Positions 40,950 to 47,361 of a stretch of 64,000 bases of DNA are shown here, piece after piece. This DNA is from an uncultured Flavobacteriaceae bacterium (GTDB lineage: Bacteria > Bacteroidota > Bacteroidia > Flavobacteriales > Flavobacteriaceae), in assembly GCA_965652205.1 (NCBI GenBank), contig CBFGUI010000003.1, forward strand, positions 12,589-76,588, read 5' to 3'. The stretch's first letter is position 1, and each line of letters begins with the position of its first letter. The translations under genes and the position numbers were made by a program. The notes below the pieces were generated by a model. It did not search any database, was not told the DNA's origin, and saw only the letters and a list, made by a program, of their open reading frames with translations.

Positions 40950-42170
40950 TCAGTCCACAGAATTGAATTCCTCCACGATTTCCTCGAACTCGATGCGGTA
41001 ATAGGTGCCCTTTTTCTCCGATTCCCGTTTGATGGAGCCCCGAAGTTGGCGGCTGAGGTTGTAGATCAACTTTAGGCCCAGGGAATTGGAAGTTTTCGGA
41101 CTGACCTCCTGTGGATAGCCAATTCCGTTGTCCCCAAGATAGAGTTCATAACGATTTTCCCCGATTTTTTTGACGGACACCAGGATTTTCCCATTATAGT
41201 CCTCGGTAATGCCGTATTTAAGGGCATTGGTGATGGTTTCGTTGATTATGAGCCCTAAGGGGATCACCGTGTCTATGCTGAGGTTCAGGTCTTCGATATC
41301 CAATTGGACCTTTACCCTGTCGTTGCTCCCCCGTACCGAGCGCACCAAATAATCACACAATTCCTGCACATAGGGCCTGAGTTCGATCTTGGAAAGGTAG
41401 TCGTCCCTTTTGTAGAGCATTTCATGGACCATGGCCATGGAGACCACCCGGTTCTGGCTGCTTTTGATGATACCACTTATTTTGTCATCGGAAATGGCGC
41501 GTGCCTGTAAGCTCAAGAGGCTGGATACCGTCTGAAGGTTGTTCTTGACCCTGTGGTGGACCTCCTTGAGCAGGGTCTCCTTTTCCTCAATGCGTTTTTG
41601 CACCTCATTTCGTGATTCATAGAGCTTGTGGTGGGCCTTGAGGAGGTTTCTGCCGAATACCCCCCCGAGCAGGTATACCGCAAAGGAGATGGAGAGAAAG
41701 GCGAACCAGGGCCTCATTTCCAAGGGGACCGTATTTGACGAGATCTTAAAATCTCCCATTTCATATAAAAACAACAGGGCCACCACCACCAAATTGATGA
41801 TAAGGTATAATTGTCCGAACACCCTGGTGCTCACATAGCCCGCGAACACAATGATTGCCAGGACAAAAATAAAGGGACTTTGTATCCCCCCGCTGAAGAG
41901 GGTGACCACAACGGCCGAGATCATGGACAATATGGAGGCCGTATTATAGGTGAACAACAAATTTTTATGGCTTTGGAACATCAGGGTGTTCACAAAGTTG
42001 AGAAAGGCGTAAACGATAAAGGTATAGGGAATCACCCCTTCTATGTCCAGGAAGAAAAAGCAAATAACACCCAGGATGGCAGCAATGAGGGAGGAGCTGT
42101 AATTTACCTTGAGTATCAGTGCGGTCTTGTCCTGTAAACGGTATGTATCCTTAGCAGGATTTTTTTTCAT
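40950..42170 (-). CDS. Membrane sensor histidine kinase, HisKA_2/HWE-like family
   Basis: About 6 TM helices, LLKEVHHRVKNNLQ H-box, NETITNALKY N-box, DNGIG and SLGL G-boxes. Start at ATG 42170 or 42197. Confidence 0.93.
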   Translation of the reverse strand: MKKNPAKDTYRLQDKTALILKVNYSSSLIAAILGVICFFFLDIEGVIPYTFIVYAFLNFVNTLMFQSHKNLLFTYNTASILSMISAVVVTLFSGGIQSPFIFVLAIIVFAGYVSTRVFGQLYLIINLVVVALLFLYEMGDFKISSNTVPLEMRPWFAFLSISFAVYLLGGVFGRNLLKAHHKLYESRNEVQKRIEEKETLLKEVHHRVKNNLQTVSSLLSLQARAISDDKISGIIKSSQNRVVSMAMVHEMLYKRDDYLSKIELRPYVQELCDYLVRSVRGSNDRVKVQLDIEDLNLSIDTVIPLGLIINETITNALKYGITEDYNGKILVSVKKIGENRYELYLGDNGIGYPQEVSPKTSNSLGLKLIYNLSRQLRGSIKRESEKKGTYYRIEFEEIVEEFNSVD

Positions 42171-42283
42171 GTGTTTCACCAAAATTGTGTCATCCACTGC
42201 CTATAAGTACAAGATTTAACTGCCAAGGTTGGTATAGGTAAGGAATGGGGCCCGATGGATGTATATCTAAAAATGTTTTTAGG

Positions 42284-42430
42284 GTGAACTACCCACCCAC
42301 GGCGTAGCCGATGGGTTGGGCTTCTGATTTCACAGACCTACGCTTCTTTTCAGAAGTCTTATTTGGGTCTCCATCAGTGTACTCGACCGTCCCGGCCGAG
42401 ATATTTTTCAAACCTTCTTTTAGGATATTT
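42284..42430 (-). ncRNA. Predicted TnpB omegaRNA (reRNA) scaffold overlapping the tnpB 3' end; guide is the flank starting at 42283
   Basis: CTTCT-GAAA-AGAAG tetraloop stem, CTGAT/ATCAG and GACC/GGTC pairings, and the right-end hairpin ending in TCAC. The location is established for TnpB systems; the 5' boundary is approximate. Confidence 0.7.
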
Positions 42431-43494
42431 CTACTCGCATTTATATCTCTGTCGTGTACCACACCACAAGAATCACAAGTCCATTCCCTATCTGAAAGTT
42501 TTAATTCTTGATTTATCCAACCACAATCCCCACAAGTTTTACTTGATGGATAGGAACGATTGACTTTAACAAGTTCTTTTCCATACCAATCACATTTATA
42601 TTGAAGCAATATTACAAAATTACCCCAACATGCATCGGCAATATGTTTTGATAATTTGTGGTTTTTGAACATACCTTTAACATTTAAGTCCTCTACTGAT
42701 ATTAAATCATATTGATTGACCAATTGATGAGAAACTTTGTGTAAGGTATCCAATCTACAACTTGCAATTTTCTCGTGAATCTTGGCAACTTTGAGTTTTT
42801 GTTTTTCAAACCCATTACTGCCTTTTTGTTTACGGGATAAGTGCTGTTGTGCTTTCTTTAATTGTTTTGCATATTTCTTTGTGTGCTTATTGTTTTTATA
42901 CTTTTTCCCATCCGATGTTATTACAAAATCCTTTAGACCAAGGTCTATTCCAATTTGTTTGCCGGTTTTGGGCAATTGTTCTATTTCCTGTTCTGTAAAT
43001 ATAGAAACAAAGTATTTGCCCGTTGGTGTTTTGGTAATGGACATCTTACCAATTTTCCCCCTAACATCACGGTGCAACTTTACTTTAATCTCTTCTTTAA
43101 ATTTAGGTATATGTATCTTGTTGTCTGTCAGTGTTCCAAATTGAGGTATGGTAAATGTACTCTTATGTTTCCTTGATTTGAATTTAGGAAACTGGGCATT
43201 GCCTCTAAAAAAGTTTAAAAATGCAGAATCCAAGGAGCGTAAAGCAAATTGAAGCGACTGACTATTAACTTCCTTTAACCACTTTGTTTCTTCTTTCTTT
43301 TTGAGTTTTGTCAGAGCGGCGGCTTGTTCATGGTAATTGTCAGACTTTTTATCCGCTTGATACTGTTCTTTACGTTCATTTAAAAAATGATTATAGACAT
43401 AGCGAGTACAACCAAAGTGCTTTGCAAGAAGGGTTTCTTGCTCTGCTGTTGGATATATTCTAAATTTATAGGTCTTATTCATCATTTTCATCAC
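42289..43494 (-). CDS. tnpB: RNA-guided endonuclease TnpB (Cas12 ancestor)
   Basis: YKFRIYPT N-terminus, RuvC-I GIDLG, RuvC-II VEDLN, Zn finger CGDC...CDSC, RuvC-III DRDINA; all catalytic residues present. Several possible starts between 43482 and 43494. Confidence 0.95.
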   Translation of the reverse strand: MMKMMNKTYKFRIYPTAEQETLLAKHFGCTRYVYNHFLNERKEQYQADKKSDNYHEQAAALTKLKKKEETKWLKEVNSQSLQFALRSLDSAFLNFFRGNAQFPKFKSRKHKSTFTIPQFGTLTDNKIHIPKFKEEIKVKLHRDVRGKIGKMSITKTPTGKYFVSIFTEQEIEQLPKTGKQIGIDLGLKDFVITSDGKKYKNNKHTKKYAKQLKKAQQHLSRKQKGSNGFEKQKLKVAKIHEKIASCRLDTLHKVSHQLVNQYDLISVEDLNVKGMFKNHKLSKHIADACWGNFVILLQYKCDWYGKELVKVNRSYPSSKTCGDCGWINQELKLSDREWTCDSCGVVHDRDINASRNILKEGLKNISAGTVEYTDGDPNKTSEKKRRSVKSEAQPIGYAVGG

Positions 43495-43534
43495 TTACTA
43501 TACATCAAAACTTATGCCAAAATACCGTTTTATG

Positions 43535-43542
43535 TAAATTTG
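43535..43542 (+). promoter_or_regulatory. Bacteroidota-type -7 box for tnpA inside the IS
   Basis: TAAATTTG 7 bp upstream of the tnpA ATG. Confidence 0.5.
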
Positions 43543-43549
43543 TCATGAT

Positions 43550-43912
43550 ATGTCTCACCACATCAGTACAGATCGCTCAAAACACTACTTAAAATGGCAT
43601 TTAATTTTGGTTGCCAAGTATCGTGGAAATATCTTGGTTGGTCAGTTAAATGATGATTTAAAGTCTGTCTTTCAATCCATAGCCGATAATCCGGATTTTG
43701 AAATTGAGGTGTTTGAATCAGATGTCAACCATATTCATTTTCTTATTCGCCACATACCTCGTTTGTCCATCGCTCAAATTGTTCGTAGATTGAAGCAAGA
43801 ATCCACACATCAGTTATGGTTACAACATCGTTCAACACTTCGTCGGTATTATTGGTATCGTAAAATTTTGTGTCCGGATGGGTACTTCGCTTGTTCTATC
43901 GGTGAGGCTTCA
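43550..43912 (+). pseudogene. tnpA: IS200/IS605 Y1 transposase TnpA, C-terminally truncated
   Basis: HLILVAKYR, HUH motif NHIHFL, LKQES and DGYF.CSIGEAS are present. The following helix with the catalytic Tyr and the native stop are absent, and the frame runs on to 44239 antisense to secA. Confidence 0.85.
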
Positions 43913-43939
43913 GCATCAGTGGGTTTTACGCTCCGCCAT

Positions 43940-43980
43940 ATAAAAAAAATGACAGCCCCAAAAACCGCTGTCACTTTTTA
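43940..43980 (-). terminator. Bidirectional intrinsic terminator of secA; its T-tail supplies the TTAT insertion site
   Basis: AAAAAAAA-TGACAGC-N10-GCTGTCA-C-TTTTT. Confidence 0.8.
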
Positions 43981-43998
43981 TATCACATTCAATCCTGG

Positions 43999-46900
43999 TC
44001 AATCCTCGACCAACACCCATTCCCCTTTTTCGATCAGGGGTTCGGCCTGTTTGTATTTTACGCTCTTGCTCTCCCCGGACATGATATTTTTGATGGTGAC
44101 CCTGTCGTTCCTACCAATTTTCGGCTTTTCCCTGACCACGGTCTCGGTCAACTGCTGTCTTTGGCCCTGGGTCTGTCCGGCAGCCCTGCTGCGGGCGGAA
44201 AGTTCATCACTGTTGGGGATTTCCTCCTTGGAGGTCTGAAGCTTCTCCTTGGGCCTGCTCACGGTCCTGGCCTCCTGGATTTCGTTGCTGTTCTGGGACG
44301 GAAGTTCCCCTTTGAAGAGGAAGGAAATCACTTCCTTGTTCACCTTGTCGATCATTTCCTTGAAGAGTTCAAAAGCCTCGAACTTATAAATCAATAGCGG
44401 GTCCTTTTGTTCGTGAACGGCCAATTGGACGGATTGTTTCAGTTCGTCCATTTTGCGCAAATGGGTCTTCCAGGAGTCATCGATAATGGCCAGGGAGATG
44501 TTTTTCTCAAAATCCGTGATCAATTGCTTGCCCTCACTGCGGTAGGCCTTTTCCAGATTGGTGACCACGTTCAGGGTCTTGATCCCATCGGTAAAGGGAA
44601 CCACGATCCGTTCAAAGGAATTGGATTGGTCCTCGTGTACCCTTTTGATGACCTGGAAGGCCATCGCCGCGGAGCGCTCCATCTTGTCCAGGTAAAACTC
44701 ATAGGCCGCCTTATAGACCAAATTGGCCAATTCCTGCACCCCCATCCTCTTGAACTCGTCCTCTGTGACGGGTGCGGTAATGGAGAAGAATTTGATGAGT
44801 TCGAACTCAAAGTTCTTATAATCGTCGGCCAATTTGTTGGTCTCTACCAACAGTTCGCTGGTATCGTAGATCATATTGGCAATATCCACCTTGAGCCTTT
44901 CCCCTTGGAGGGCGTGTCTTCTTCTTTTGTAGACCACCTCCCGTTGGGCATTCATGACATCATCGTATTCCAAAAGGCGCTTACGGATCCCAAAGTTGTT
45001 CTCCTCCACCTTTTTCTGGGCGCGTTCAATGGAACGGGTCATCATGGAATGCTGGATCACCTCGCCATCCTCCAAGCCCATACGGTCCATCATTTTTGCA
45101 ACTCGGTCCGAGCCGAACAAACGCATGAGGTTATCCTCCAGGGAAACATAGAATTGTGAGCTTCCCGGATCGCCCTGTCGGCCGGAACGGCCCCTGAGCT
45201 GTCGGTCCACCCTTCTGGAATCATGGCGTTCCGTGCCTATGATGGCCAATCCCCCGGCTTCCTTGACCTCAGGGGACAATTTGATGTCCGTACCCCTACC
45301 GGCCATGTTGGTCGCTATGGTCACGATACCGGATTTCCCGGCCTCGGCCACGATATCCGCCTCCTTCTTGTGGAGTTTTGCGTTCAGCACATTGTGGGGA
45401 ACCTTTCGAACGCTGAGCAATTTGGACAGCAATTCGGAAATCTCCACTGAGGTCGTACCGATAAGTACCGGCCTGCCCGCTTGGGAGAGTTTGGTGACCT
45501 CCTCGATGATGGCATTGTATTTTTCCCTTTTGGTCTTGTAGATCAAATCGTTCCTGTCATCCCGTGCAATGGGCCTGTTGGTGGGAATCTCCATGACATC
45601 CAATTTGTAGATTTCCCAGAATTCCCCCGCTTCGGTAATGGCCGTACCGGTCATACCGGCCAGCTTTTTGTACATCCTGAAGTAATTTTGCAGGGTAATG
45701 GTGGCAAAGGTCTGGGTCATGGCCTCGATCTTGACGCGCTCCTTGGCCTCGATGGCCTGGTGGAGTCCGTCCGAATACCGTCTGCCGTCCATGATACGGC
45801 CCGTTTGCTCGTCCACGATCATGACCTTGTTGTCGATCACCACGTATTCCACGTCCTTTTCAAAAAGGGTATAGGCTTTCAGCAGCTGGGTCATGGTATG
45901 GATCCTTTCGCTTTTGACGGAAAAATCCTTGAAGAGCTCTTCCTTGAGTTGGGCCTCCTTCTCGATATCCAAGCCCTGTTGTTCGATCTTGGCGATCTCA
46001 CTGCCAATGTCCGGCATGACAAAGAAATCCCGGTCCTCGTCCCCTGAGATATAATCGACCCCTTTATCGGTCAACTCGATCTGGTTGTTCTTTTCATCGA
46101 TCACAAACAACAGGTCCGCATCCACTTTGGGCATTTCCCTGTTGTTGTCCTGCATATAGAAGTTCTCTGTTTTTTGGAGCAGTTGTTTCACCCCCTCTTC
46201 ACTCAAGAACTTGATCAGGGCCTTGTTCTTCGGAAGCCCGCGGTGTACCCGGAGCAGGAGAAACCCTCCTTCCTTGCTATCCCCGGCGGCGATCAATTTT
46301 TTGGCCTCGGCCAGGACCCCGGTCAAATGCTGTCGCTGTTTGTTCACGATATCGGCCACCTTTGGGCTGAGTTCGTTGAATTCATGTCGATCGCCCTCGG
46401 GCACCGGCCCCGAGATGATCAAGGGGGTACGCGCATCGTCCACAAGGACGGAATCCACCTCATCCACTATGGCGTAATGGTGGGGGCGCTGCACCAGGTC
46501 ATCGGGGGTGTGCGCCATATTGTCGCGCAAGTAGTCAAACCCGAATTCGTTGTTGGTGCCATAGGTGATATCGGCATTGTAGGCGGCCCTTCTGCCGTCG
46601 GAATTGGGCCTGTGATGGTCTATGCAATCCACGGAAAGGCCGTGGAACTCAAATATGGGGGCCATCCATGAGCTGTCCCTTTTGGCCAGGTAATCGTTCA
46701 CCGTCACCAAATGGGCCCCCTTGCCCGCAAGGGCATTGAGATAGAGTGGGAGGGTGGCCACCAAGGTCTTTCCTTCCCCGGTCTGCATTTCTGCGATCTT
46801 CCCCTGGTGGAGGGCAATGCCCCCGATGAGCTGCACGTCGTAATGTACCATGTCCCAGGTCACTTCCTTTCCGGCGGCATCCCAGGAATTGCTCCAAACG

Positions 46901-47361
46901 GCATGGTCCCCGTCGAGGGTGACATAGTTCTTGGTCCCGGAAAGTTTTCGGTCAAATTCCGTGGCATGCACCCTTAGGGTTTCGTTGGCCACAAAACGCT
47001 TGGCGGTTTCCTTGACCACGGCAAAGGCTTCGGGCAGGATGGCGTTCAGTGTCTTTTCGGTCACTTTATAGGCCTCTTCGCCGAGTTTGTCGATTTCCCC
47101 GTAGATTTCTTCGTTTCGATCGATGTCGGTGGATTGTTCGACCTCCTCCTTTAAGATGGCAATTTTTTCATTGATTTCCTTGCAATCCGCCGCGATTCGC
47201 TCCTTGAAGGCCACGGTCTTGGCACGTAATTGATCGTGGTCCAAACTTTCGAGTTGCGCCTCGAAGGACCTTATTTCATTTACCAAAGGCTGAAGGGATC
47301 TTACGTCTTTTTCAGATTTGTCCCCTACAAAAACCTTGAGTACGGAATTGATAAAGCTCAT
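43999..47361 (-). CDS. secA: Preprotein translocase subunit SecA
   Basis: EMQTGEGKT, VTVNDYLAKRD, DEVDS, GRRYSDGLHQAIEAKE, TNMAGRGTDI, GRSGRQGDPG. Confidence 0.98.
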   Translation of the reverse strand: MSFINSVLKVFVGDKSEKDVRSLQPLVNEIRSFEAQLESLDHDQLRAKTVAFKERIAADCKEINEKIAILKEEVEQSTDIDRNEEIYGEIDKLGEEAYKVTEKTLNAILPEAFAVVKETAKRFVANETLRVHATEFDRKLSGTKNYVTLDGDHAVWSNSWDAAGKEVTWDMVHYDVQLIGGIALHQGKIAEMQTGEGKTLVATLPLYLNALAGKGAHLVTVNDYLAKRDSSWMAPIFEFHGLSVDCIDHHRPNSDGRRAAYNADITYGTNNEFGFDYLRDNMAHTPDDLVQRPHHYAIVDEVDSVLVDDARTPLIISGPVPEGDRHEFNELSPKVADIVNKQRQHLTGVLAEAKKLIAAGDSKEGGFLLLRVHRGLPKNKALIKFLSEEGVKQLLQKTENFYMQDNNREMPKVDADLLFVIDEKNNQIELTDKGVDYISGDEDRDFFVMPDIGSEIAKIEQQGLDIEKEAQLKEELFKDFSVKSERIHTMTQLLKAYTLFEKDVEYVVIDNKVMIVDEQTGRIMDGRRYSDGLHQAIEAKERVKIEAMTQTFATITLQNYFRMYKKLAGMTGTAITEAGEFWEIYKLDVMEIPTNRPIARDDRNDLIYKTKREKYNAIIEEVTKLSQAGRPVLIGTTSVEISELLSKLLSVRKVPHNVLNAKLHKKEADIVAEAGKSGIVTIATNMAGRGTDIKLSPEVKEAGGLAIIGTERHDSRRVDRQLRGRSGRQGDPGSSQFYVSLEDNLMRLFGSDRVAKMMDRMGLEDGEVIQHSMMTRSIERAQKKVEENNFGIRKRLLEYDDVMNAQREVVYKRRRHALQGERLKVDIANMIYDTSELLVETNKLADDYKNFEFELIKFFSITAPVTEDEFKRMGVQELANLVYKAAYEFYLDKMERSAAMAFQVIKRVHEDQSNSFERIVVPFTDGIKTLNVVTNLEKAYRSEGKQLITDFEKNISLAIIDDSWKTHLRKMDELKQSVQLAVHEQKDPLLIYKFEAFELFKEMIDKVNKEVISFLFKGELPSQNSNEIQEARTVSRPKEKLQTSKEEIPNSDELSARSRAAGQTQGQRQQLTETVVREKPKIGRNDRVTIKNIMSGESKSVKYKQAEPLIEKGEWVLVED

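Follow-up and report, generated by a model that had tools for sequence, protein, structure and literature searches.

The question that this locus raises is whether a tnpB gene and its omega-RNA, found between secA and a histidine-kinase gene in a 64,000-nt stretch of contig CBFGUI010000003.1 (the window, to which all coordinates refer), form an ordinary insertion sequence (IS) or have begun to serve their host, as an earlier note on this DNA had suggested when it described the locus as a possible early stage of TnpB domestication. We find that it is an ordinary copy of the IS200/IS605 family, which shows no sign of a new host function. The explanation we prefer, and to which we give a probability of roughly 85%, is that of a stranded IS605-type copy, inserted 3′ of the pentanucleotide TTTAT and immobilised by two internal deletions, with its tnpB gene and omega-RNA intact and transcribed.

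The copy constitutes a 1656-bp AT-rich block between the 3′ end of secA and the histidine-kinase gene. Its guanine-plus-cytosine (GC) content is 36%, versus 50% in the window, so that, judged by composition, the element is a horizontal acquisition. Its extent is as follows.

42284..43939, minus strand: IS605-type element of the IS200/IS605 family, with divergent tnpA and tnpB; boundaries from an empty-site contig and from flank divergence.

The empty-site contig, 187 nt long and assembled from soil metagenome X15, passes from 42283 straight to 43940, leaving out 1656 nt; it stems from a diverged relative, with 13 mismatches and a 3-nt gap over 157 nt of flank. The joint has zero positional ambiguity, and no bases are duplicated or lost. 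The empty site reads TTTTTTTTAT followed directly by CCTAAAAACA or, on the minus strand, ...GCTGTCATTTTTTTTAT followed by CCTAAAAACATTTTTAGATA. Because the joint is unambiguous, the element is 42284..43939, without target-site duplication, and the guide begins at 42283. This is the empty site that the earlier note had reconstructed, with both boundaries, from the pairing rule known from IS608; applied by eye, that rule had placed the boundaries, the target motif and the guide start to the base, and the independent contig verified them. The similarity with close relatives in unrelated contexts (loci L011–L020, TnpB 87% identical) ends at ...GGGTAGTTCAC, i.e., at 42284, and loose contig ends in five runs fall on the same position. 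Across 21 distinct right ends, with more than 20 distinct flanks, the terminal sequence is either TAGTTCAC or TAGTTCAT.

Two short motifs flank the points of cleavage.

43940..43944, minus strand: 5′-TTTAT, target pentanucleotide and predicted transposon-adjacent motif (TAM), outside the element; the last five nt of the secA terminator T-tail, invariant in relatives.
42284..42288, minus strand: TTCAC, right-end cleavage motif or transposon-encoded motif (TEM), the last five nt of the element, where the relatives’ similarity stops.

On the left side, relatives read ...TTTAT, then four to six variable bases and then GGAGCGTAAAAC-hairpin; TTTAT is the left flank in 18 out of 18 independent contexts (13 of the TTCAC group and five of the TTCAT group). 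On the right side, in more than 20 contexts, the last sequence shared among relatives before their flanks part is TTCAC or TTCAT, which bears out the guide start at 42283. In IS608, guide positions 1, 2 and 4 pair with cleavage-site positions -3, -4 and -1. This rule is satisfied at both ends of the window’s element. At the right end, the DNA guide G_R, GAAG (42324..42321, minus strand), stands directly 5′ of the right-end hairpin (42320..42292) and pairs with the TCAC of TTCAC (42288..42284), just as had been read from the letters. At the left end, the DNA guide G_L, AAAA (43927..43924, minus strand), pairs with the flank TTAT (43943..43940); here the earlier reading was correct as to both motifs, the flank being in fact TTTAT (43944..43940), but the hairpin at whose foot AAAA was placed exists only in relatives, the window keeping no more than its 5′ arm. 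Among relatives, the position-4/-1 pair underwent a compensatory switch from GAAG/TCAC to GAAA/TCAT (G:C in 10 sequences, A:T in five), which probably represents a single evolutionary event and is supporting, not strong, evidence for the rule. The right-end DNA hairpin has a folding energy of -14.3 kcal/mol (z = -3.6) and covaries among relatives. In experiments with ISGst2, the TAM was TTTAT and the TEM TTCAC, and both were paired with DNA guides (Meers et al. 2023, bioRxiv 10.1101/2023.03.14.532601). The proposal of 5′-(T)TTAT as the TAM of the window’s TnpB is supported, in the form TTTAT, by the invariant flanks of relatives and by analogy with ISGst2; the protein itself would be expected to use this motif.

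A sister subgroup of elements ends in TTCAT and has the internal guide GAAA and another hairpin (CACATTAG.../...CTAATGTG), while the TAM TTTAT and the left guide AAAA are retained; its TAM and TEM differ at one position only. Right ends of this subgroup occur in loci L022–L027, L035–L042, L048, L049, L051 and L054, and left ends at L022:909, L040:907, L051:396, L039:1327 and L041:205.

The element boundaries originally placed within the span 42264–43943 were right, but the divergent tnpA remnant inside that span and both deletions had been missed. The left part of the element comprises the following.

43550..43912, plus strand: tnpA remnant (Y1 HUH transposase), codons 1–121, the open reading frame (ORF) of which runs into flanking DNA; from Pfam Y1_Tnp and alignment with relatives.
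43913..43939, minus strand: left-end remnant, consisting of ATGGCGGAGCGT, AAAA (43927..43924) and the hairpin 5′ arm CCCACTGATGC (43923..43913), the 3′ arm being deleted; from alignment with five relatives.
43486..43549, no strand assigned: divergent tnpA–tnpB intergenic region, 55 nt shorter than in relatives; from alignment with six relatives.

Only positions 3–112 of the 121 in the Pfam Y1_Tnp profile are matched by the tnpA remnant, which has no proper stop; it retains the HUH motif (HIH) but has lost by deletion the C-terminal helix that bears the catalytic Tyr (IRQYILNQG in relatives). The relatives’ TnpA is intact, measures 133 amino acids (aa) and ends in ...GEASPETIRQYILNQG, its Tyr aligning with the ISDra2 TnpA motif IQKYIESQ. 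In the window, tnpA homology ends after ...SIGEAS (43912), and the next bases are the reverse complement of the left-hairpin 5′ arm; hence, the loop and 3′ arm of the hairpin (GTAGGCTCGGTGGG...) and the C-terminus of TnpA were lost in a deletion of about 64 nt. As DNA, the window’s left end folds at -2.3 kcal/mol (z = +1.0), which is no hairpin, versus -9.4 kcal/mol (z = -2.2) for the bulged hairpin of relative L011; in relatives, the left-end hairpin is intact and covarying. In runs X1 and X25, the 3′ arm is complete (TTACATCCCACCGAGCC) on loose contig ends at 43913, and full-length relatives therefore co-occur in those samples.

The second deletion, of 55 nt, concerns a palindrome-containing segment just upstream of the tnpA start (junction between 43548 and 43547), which is present in all six relatives compared and absent from the window. 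The missing segment carries an inverted repeat (TGTGAAAGTTTTTTAC...GAAACTTTTACA) and may be the operator or promoter of the divergent tnpA/tnpB pair. The tnpB-proximal half of the intergenic region is retained, with a promoter-like ATGACA-16-TATTTT (a consensus match from a promoter scan). Both deletions recur in four assemblies at ENA, in one JGI contig and in Logan contigs of many runs and, being found across independent assemblies and runs, they are real and not assembly artefacts. The copy thus descends from the IS200/IS605 family but is defective, its TnpA having lost the catalytic Tyr; going by its sequence, it is without an active transposase in cis and, because the left-end hairpin is lost, should also resist TnpA supplied in trans. 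The earlier remark that the TnpB probably lacked a mobile partner was, if anything, too cautious, given that both the Tyr helix and the left hairpin are destroyed.

Two shorter forms were seen among the relatives. In L039 (1327–1410, joined to the tnpB region at about 1409; compare L040:907–2705), an 84-nt left end almost directly abuts tnpB; this is presumably a tnpA-less, non-autonomous derivative that, unlike the window’s copy, has its left-end hairpin intact. In run X1, one contig (depth 17) joins 42826 to 43915 and skips 1088 nt, and loose ends at 42826 occur in X15 and X27 as well; this joint stems either from a miniature derivative of some related element or from an artefact of the assembly graph.

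All junction-spanning contigs of the near-identical strain carry the insertion, at one location, with ten runs spanning one or both junctions; the samples come from soil, rhizosphere, landfill, compost, sludge, fungus-associated and bovine sources. The strain’s copies differ at five sites, by about 2–5 single-nucleotide polymorphisms (SNPs): the non-synonymous E64K and one synonymous change in tnpB, one change in the tnpA remnant and two beside the intergenic deletion (at 43542 and 43547, next to the 43548/43547 junction). Five variable sites are too few for any purifying selection since the deletions to be measurable, and no such signal was obtained. Only the X15 lineage, diverged by about 8%, showed the empty allele; four additional DNA runs containing the flank yielded no further one, the insertion being present in all. 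Beyond the near-identical strain, we saw no immobile copy at this locus, nor did we find orthologous immobile copies in other species.

The nuclease gene is complete.

42289..43485, minus strand: tnpB coding sequence, 398 aa plus stop, with an alternative GTG start at 43494; from the ORF, Pfam and the ISDra2 match.

The gene is free of stops and frameshifts, and its product has the Pfam domains HTH_OrfB_IS605, OrfB_IS605 and Cas12f1-like_TNB. It matches ISDra2 TnpB (PDB 8bf8, 8exa and 8h1j) over residues 2–364 with E = 9.4e-83, the C-terminal 35 or so residues remaining unaligned. The RuvC triad D181/E265/D347 aligns with D191/E278/D361 of ISDra2 TnpB, and the zinc finger is kept (CGDC at 318 and CDSC at 337), so that the catalytic and zinc-binding residues first noticed by inspection are confirmed by alignment. 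More than 100 metagenomic homologues are 81–88% identical to it and mostly 398–400 aa long.

The RNA partner lies at the 3′ end of tnpB.

42284..42400, minus strand: omega-RNA scaffold (minimum extent), overlapping the last 37 or so tnpB codons; from alignment, RNAalifold and pair counts.
42264..42283, minus strand: predicted omega-RNA guide, CCTAAAAACATTTTTAGATA, in flanking host DNA; its start is fixed by the element boundary, and a length of 16–20 nt is assumed.

The scaffold structure was derived from 15 distinct aligned 3′ ends by RNAalifold and hand curation. It contains four covarying helices between 42400 and 42326, in addition to the right-end hairpin (42320..42292). Pairing holds in 96.4% of cells versus 38–46% when partners are slid by one to three columns, and pair changes on both sides number 16 versus 1–5 in the slid controls; the observed covariation score was unmatched by any shuffle. 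One of the hairpins is capped by the tetraloops GAAA, GUAA, GUGA, UUCG and UUAG. All helices are paired in the window’s sequence, some of them by way of compensatory changes specific to its lineage (helix 1: CUCGGCCG/CGGUCGAG). An Rfam scan of 41500..44500, judged by E-value, matched no omega-RNA or other family. The guide is unique in the window, where its sole match is the flank itself, preceded by TTCAC. A search of the IMG/VR viral contigs for TTAT followed by the guide, which the earlier note had advised, gave no match and hence no phage target. The guide contains the near-palindrome CTAAAAA CA TTTTTAG (42265–42282, minus strand), which may cause the RNA to fold on itself and lower guide availability, and which may also be native upstream sequence of the histidine-kinase gene.

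Metatranscriptome contigs from four runs, nearly all at least 99% identical, cover 43476..42227 and cross the junction to about 42007–42099; in runs X37 and X41, there are no RNA contigs over the histidine-kinase body, tnpA or secA. These contigs attest to presence only, being strandless and with RNA ends unmapped, and support transcription of the tnpB and omega-RNA region in situ. About 215 nt before the start of the scaffold, at 42622..42615 on the minus strand, tnpB contains a -7 box of the Bacteroidota type TAnnTTTG (TAATTTTG), which may be an internal omega-RNA promoter or a coding coincidence. Roughly half of the relatives have this box too, but since it coincides with the conserved codons G-N-F, it does not count as evidence for such a promoter.

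Several observations weigh against our preferred explanation. Activity of the protein and of the RNA is a prediction from homology; the RNA contigs are strandless, and carry-over of DNA is possible; the 55-nt intergenic deletion might affect the expression of tnpB. Furthermore, the window’s TnpB departs from the family at 11 out of the 258 columns with a conservation of 95% or more, including G132E and F311S, as compared to a family median of three, and ranks second out of 120 in this respect, and E64K is a change derived in the window’s own copy. The nearest neighbour of the window’s TnpB is only 87% identical, and branches of similar length deviate at 14 (P0104), nine (P0102) and, in one case, three such columns. 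The count fits a long terminal branch, though it could also reflect relaxed constraint; since other long-branch sequences mostly show high counts too, decay is not demonstrated.

A rival explanation is a functionally dead relic with intact-looking motifs, in which TnpB, the omega-RNA or both are no longer made in active form and the RNA coverage is read-through or DNA contamination. The conserved-column changes, the position of the intergenic deletion next to the promoter region and the strandless RNA contigs all agree with that explanation, which we nevertheless consider unlikely. Against it stand the absence of stops and frameshifts, the presence of all catalytic residues and zinc ligands and the pairing of all scaffold helices, some of them by compensation peculiar to the lineage; moreover, the RNA coverage in X37 and X41 is concentrated on tnpB and not on its neighbours, and the number of deviations is typical for branches of equal length.

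The stranding of an intact IS605-type copy would have proceeded in the following setting.

43945..43983, minus strand: secA intrinsic terminator, a hairpin with T-tail, directly behind which the insertion lies; from inverted repeat I1 and the secA ORF end.
43999..47361, minus strand: secA ORF, ending at 43999.
40950..42182, minus strand: histidine-kinase gene; from the ORF list.

The element would have arrived horizontally and entered the chromosome where the T-tail of the secA terminator ends, 3′ of TTTAT and upstream of the histidine-kinase gene. Later, the deletion of about 64 nt would have removed the left-hairpin 3′ arm and the helix with the catalytic Tyr of TnpA, and the 55-nt deletion the DNA just upstream of tnpA. 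By analogy with ISDra2 and ISGst2, TnpB would load the omega-RNA with the flank CCTAAAAACATTTTTAGATA as 3′ guide and cut DNA in which TTTAT stands directly 5′ of CCTAAAAACATTTTTAGATA, a combination that only the donor joint or empty allele offers. The resident copy would be spared because its target is preceded by TTCAC and not by TTTAT. The usual role of TnpB, to cut the donor joint again and thereby let recombination bring the element back, would find no substrate in the present cell, given that this copy is unable to excise; incoming empty alleles would be all that is left for the nuclease to act on.

It is from this last point that early domestication might be argued, namely that selection keeps the immobile TnpB and omega-RNA for a role at the level of the host or of the allele, be it the cutting of incoming empty alleles, which would block replacement of the locus by recombination, or an action on the region upstream of the histidine-kinase gene. 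The copy is immobile, yet tnpB is uninterrupted and transcribed; it occurs in every sample of the strain examined, and an exact target (TTTAT plus guide) exists in a related lineage. The guide, however, is merely the flank of the insertion, as in any fresh IS605 copy, and its target here lies behind TTCAC, which is no TAM. With about 2–5 SNPs among the strain’s copies, the deletions are perhaps too recent for decay to be visible, there is no signal of purifying selection, and orthologous immobile copies were not found in other species. TldRs (Wiegand et al., bioRxiv 10.1101/2023.11.30.569447) are nuclease-dead TnpB-like repressors, the guides of which target host promoters beside a TAM. The window’s locus is like them in that a TnpB-family protein is found outside a mobile unit; it differs from these exapted proteins in its intact nuclease triad (D181/E265/D347) and in its guide, the sole chromosomal match of which, within the 64-kb window, is without a TAM, no TAM-flanked host site being found in the window or, among viral contigs, in IMG/VR. 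An immobilised, intact and expressed nuclease is the necessary starting state for exaptation, and the marks of exaptation itself are absent. We thus see no positive evidence for the domestication suggested by the earlier note and consider it improbable, a recently stranded IS copy being the parsimonious reading. Equally doubtful is its more specific form, a fixed allele guard or drive without transposase, where the stranded nuclease is kept by destroying the circulating empty allele (TTTAT plus guide); if true, the locus would mark the first step on the way from a selfish nuclease to an RNA-guided one that the host retains, and it would gain greater significance only if selective maintenance of the stranded nuclease were proved.

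That the copy can still move, with a TnpA from another genomic locus acting on it in trans, is very improbable: full-length relatives with intact left end and TnpA do co-occur in the same metagenomes (the loose ends at 43913), and nothing is missing from the right end, the TAM, the TEM or either DNA guide, but Y1 transposases need the left-end hairpin, the 3′ arm of which is deleted here and the remnant unfolded, while neither a second copy of the element nor another tnpA was found in the 64-kb window and all contigs of the strain share a single location.

Amongst characterised systems, the stranded copy most resembles the IS605-family element ISGst2 of Geobacillus stearothermophilus and its TnpB2. 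The TAM and TEM are identical, TTTAT and TTCAC, and DNA guides pair with both; the omega-RNA extends over the 3′ end of tnpB and the right end of the element; and the donor joint (TAM plus right flank) is the TnpB target. This likeness is drawn from motifs and layout. The host phylum differs, here probably Bacteroidota, and so does the state of the element: the window’s copy has its own dead tnpA and no left hairpin, whereas ISGst2 copies are mobilised by TnpA in trans. ISDra2 of Deinococcus radiodurans, likewise an IS200/IS605 element with both TnpA and TnpB, encodes the closest natural protein with a solved structure (8bf8, 8exa, 8h1j). ISDra2 is generally reported with TTGAT; the window’s element differs from it by its TTTAT and by the divergent gene order, as in IS605. 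With IS608 and IS605 of Helicobacter pylori, it shares the pairing rule at both ends, hairpins with a bulged T and the absence of target duplication, and with IS605 also the divergent tnpA/tnpB; it differs in its target (TTTAT versus TTAC), in other end motifs and in being defective.

The locus thus adds a probably Bacteroidota-borne relative of the ISDra2/ISGst2-type TnpBs with a predicted TTTAT TAM, and it is a clean natural example of how an element may be stranded, with small deletions in the left end and tnpA, and with tnpB and the omega-RNA intact and, as far as the RNA contigs tell, expressed. For genome editing, the locus is no candidate of a new kind, TTTAT and TTAT TnpBs having been characterised already.

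A Bacteroidota host, as put forward from the letters, is plausible: the Bacteroidota -7 motif TAnnTTTG occurs 54 times in the window versus 32 ± 5 expected, often 20–35 nt upstream of ORF starts, and relatives of the element were found in metagenome-assembled genomes (MAGs) of Flavobacteriales and Rikenella, besides phage-like contigs. NCBIfam assigned nothing but housekeeping functions to the ten window proteins searched. A scan of genome contigs for relatives yielded seven loci, one of them a close relative.

Three independent insertions of the family lie directly behind a GC-rich hairpin and a T-run ending in TTTAT, i.e., behind intrinsic terminators: that in the window (43940–43983), one in L041 (from about 160 to 209) and one marked by a loose end at 43948 in runs X1, X4 and X25. 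Terminator tails may be favoured natural targets of the family.

The closest full-length relatives are mostly in phage-like contexts, be it in L011, L012 and L017–L019, with ERF, Cas4-like PDDEXK and Prim-Pol/DnaB neighbours, or in L021–L028, which are IMG/VR contigs; this suggests that phages are vehicles for the IS lineage. Beside one relative, a second, unrelated tnpB of 393 aa is paired with a serine resolvase and forms an IS607-type element with it (L013:4531–6197).

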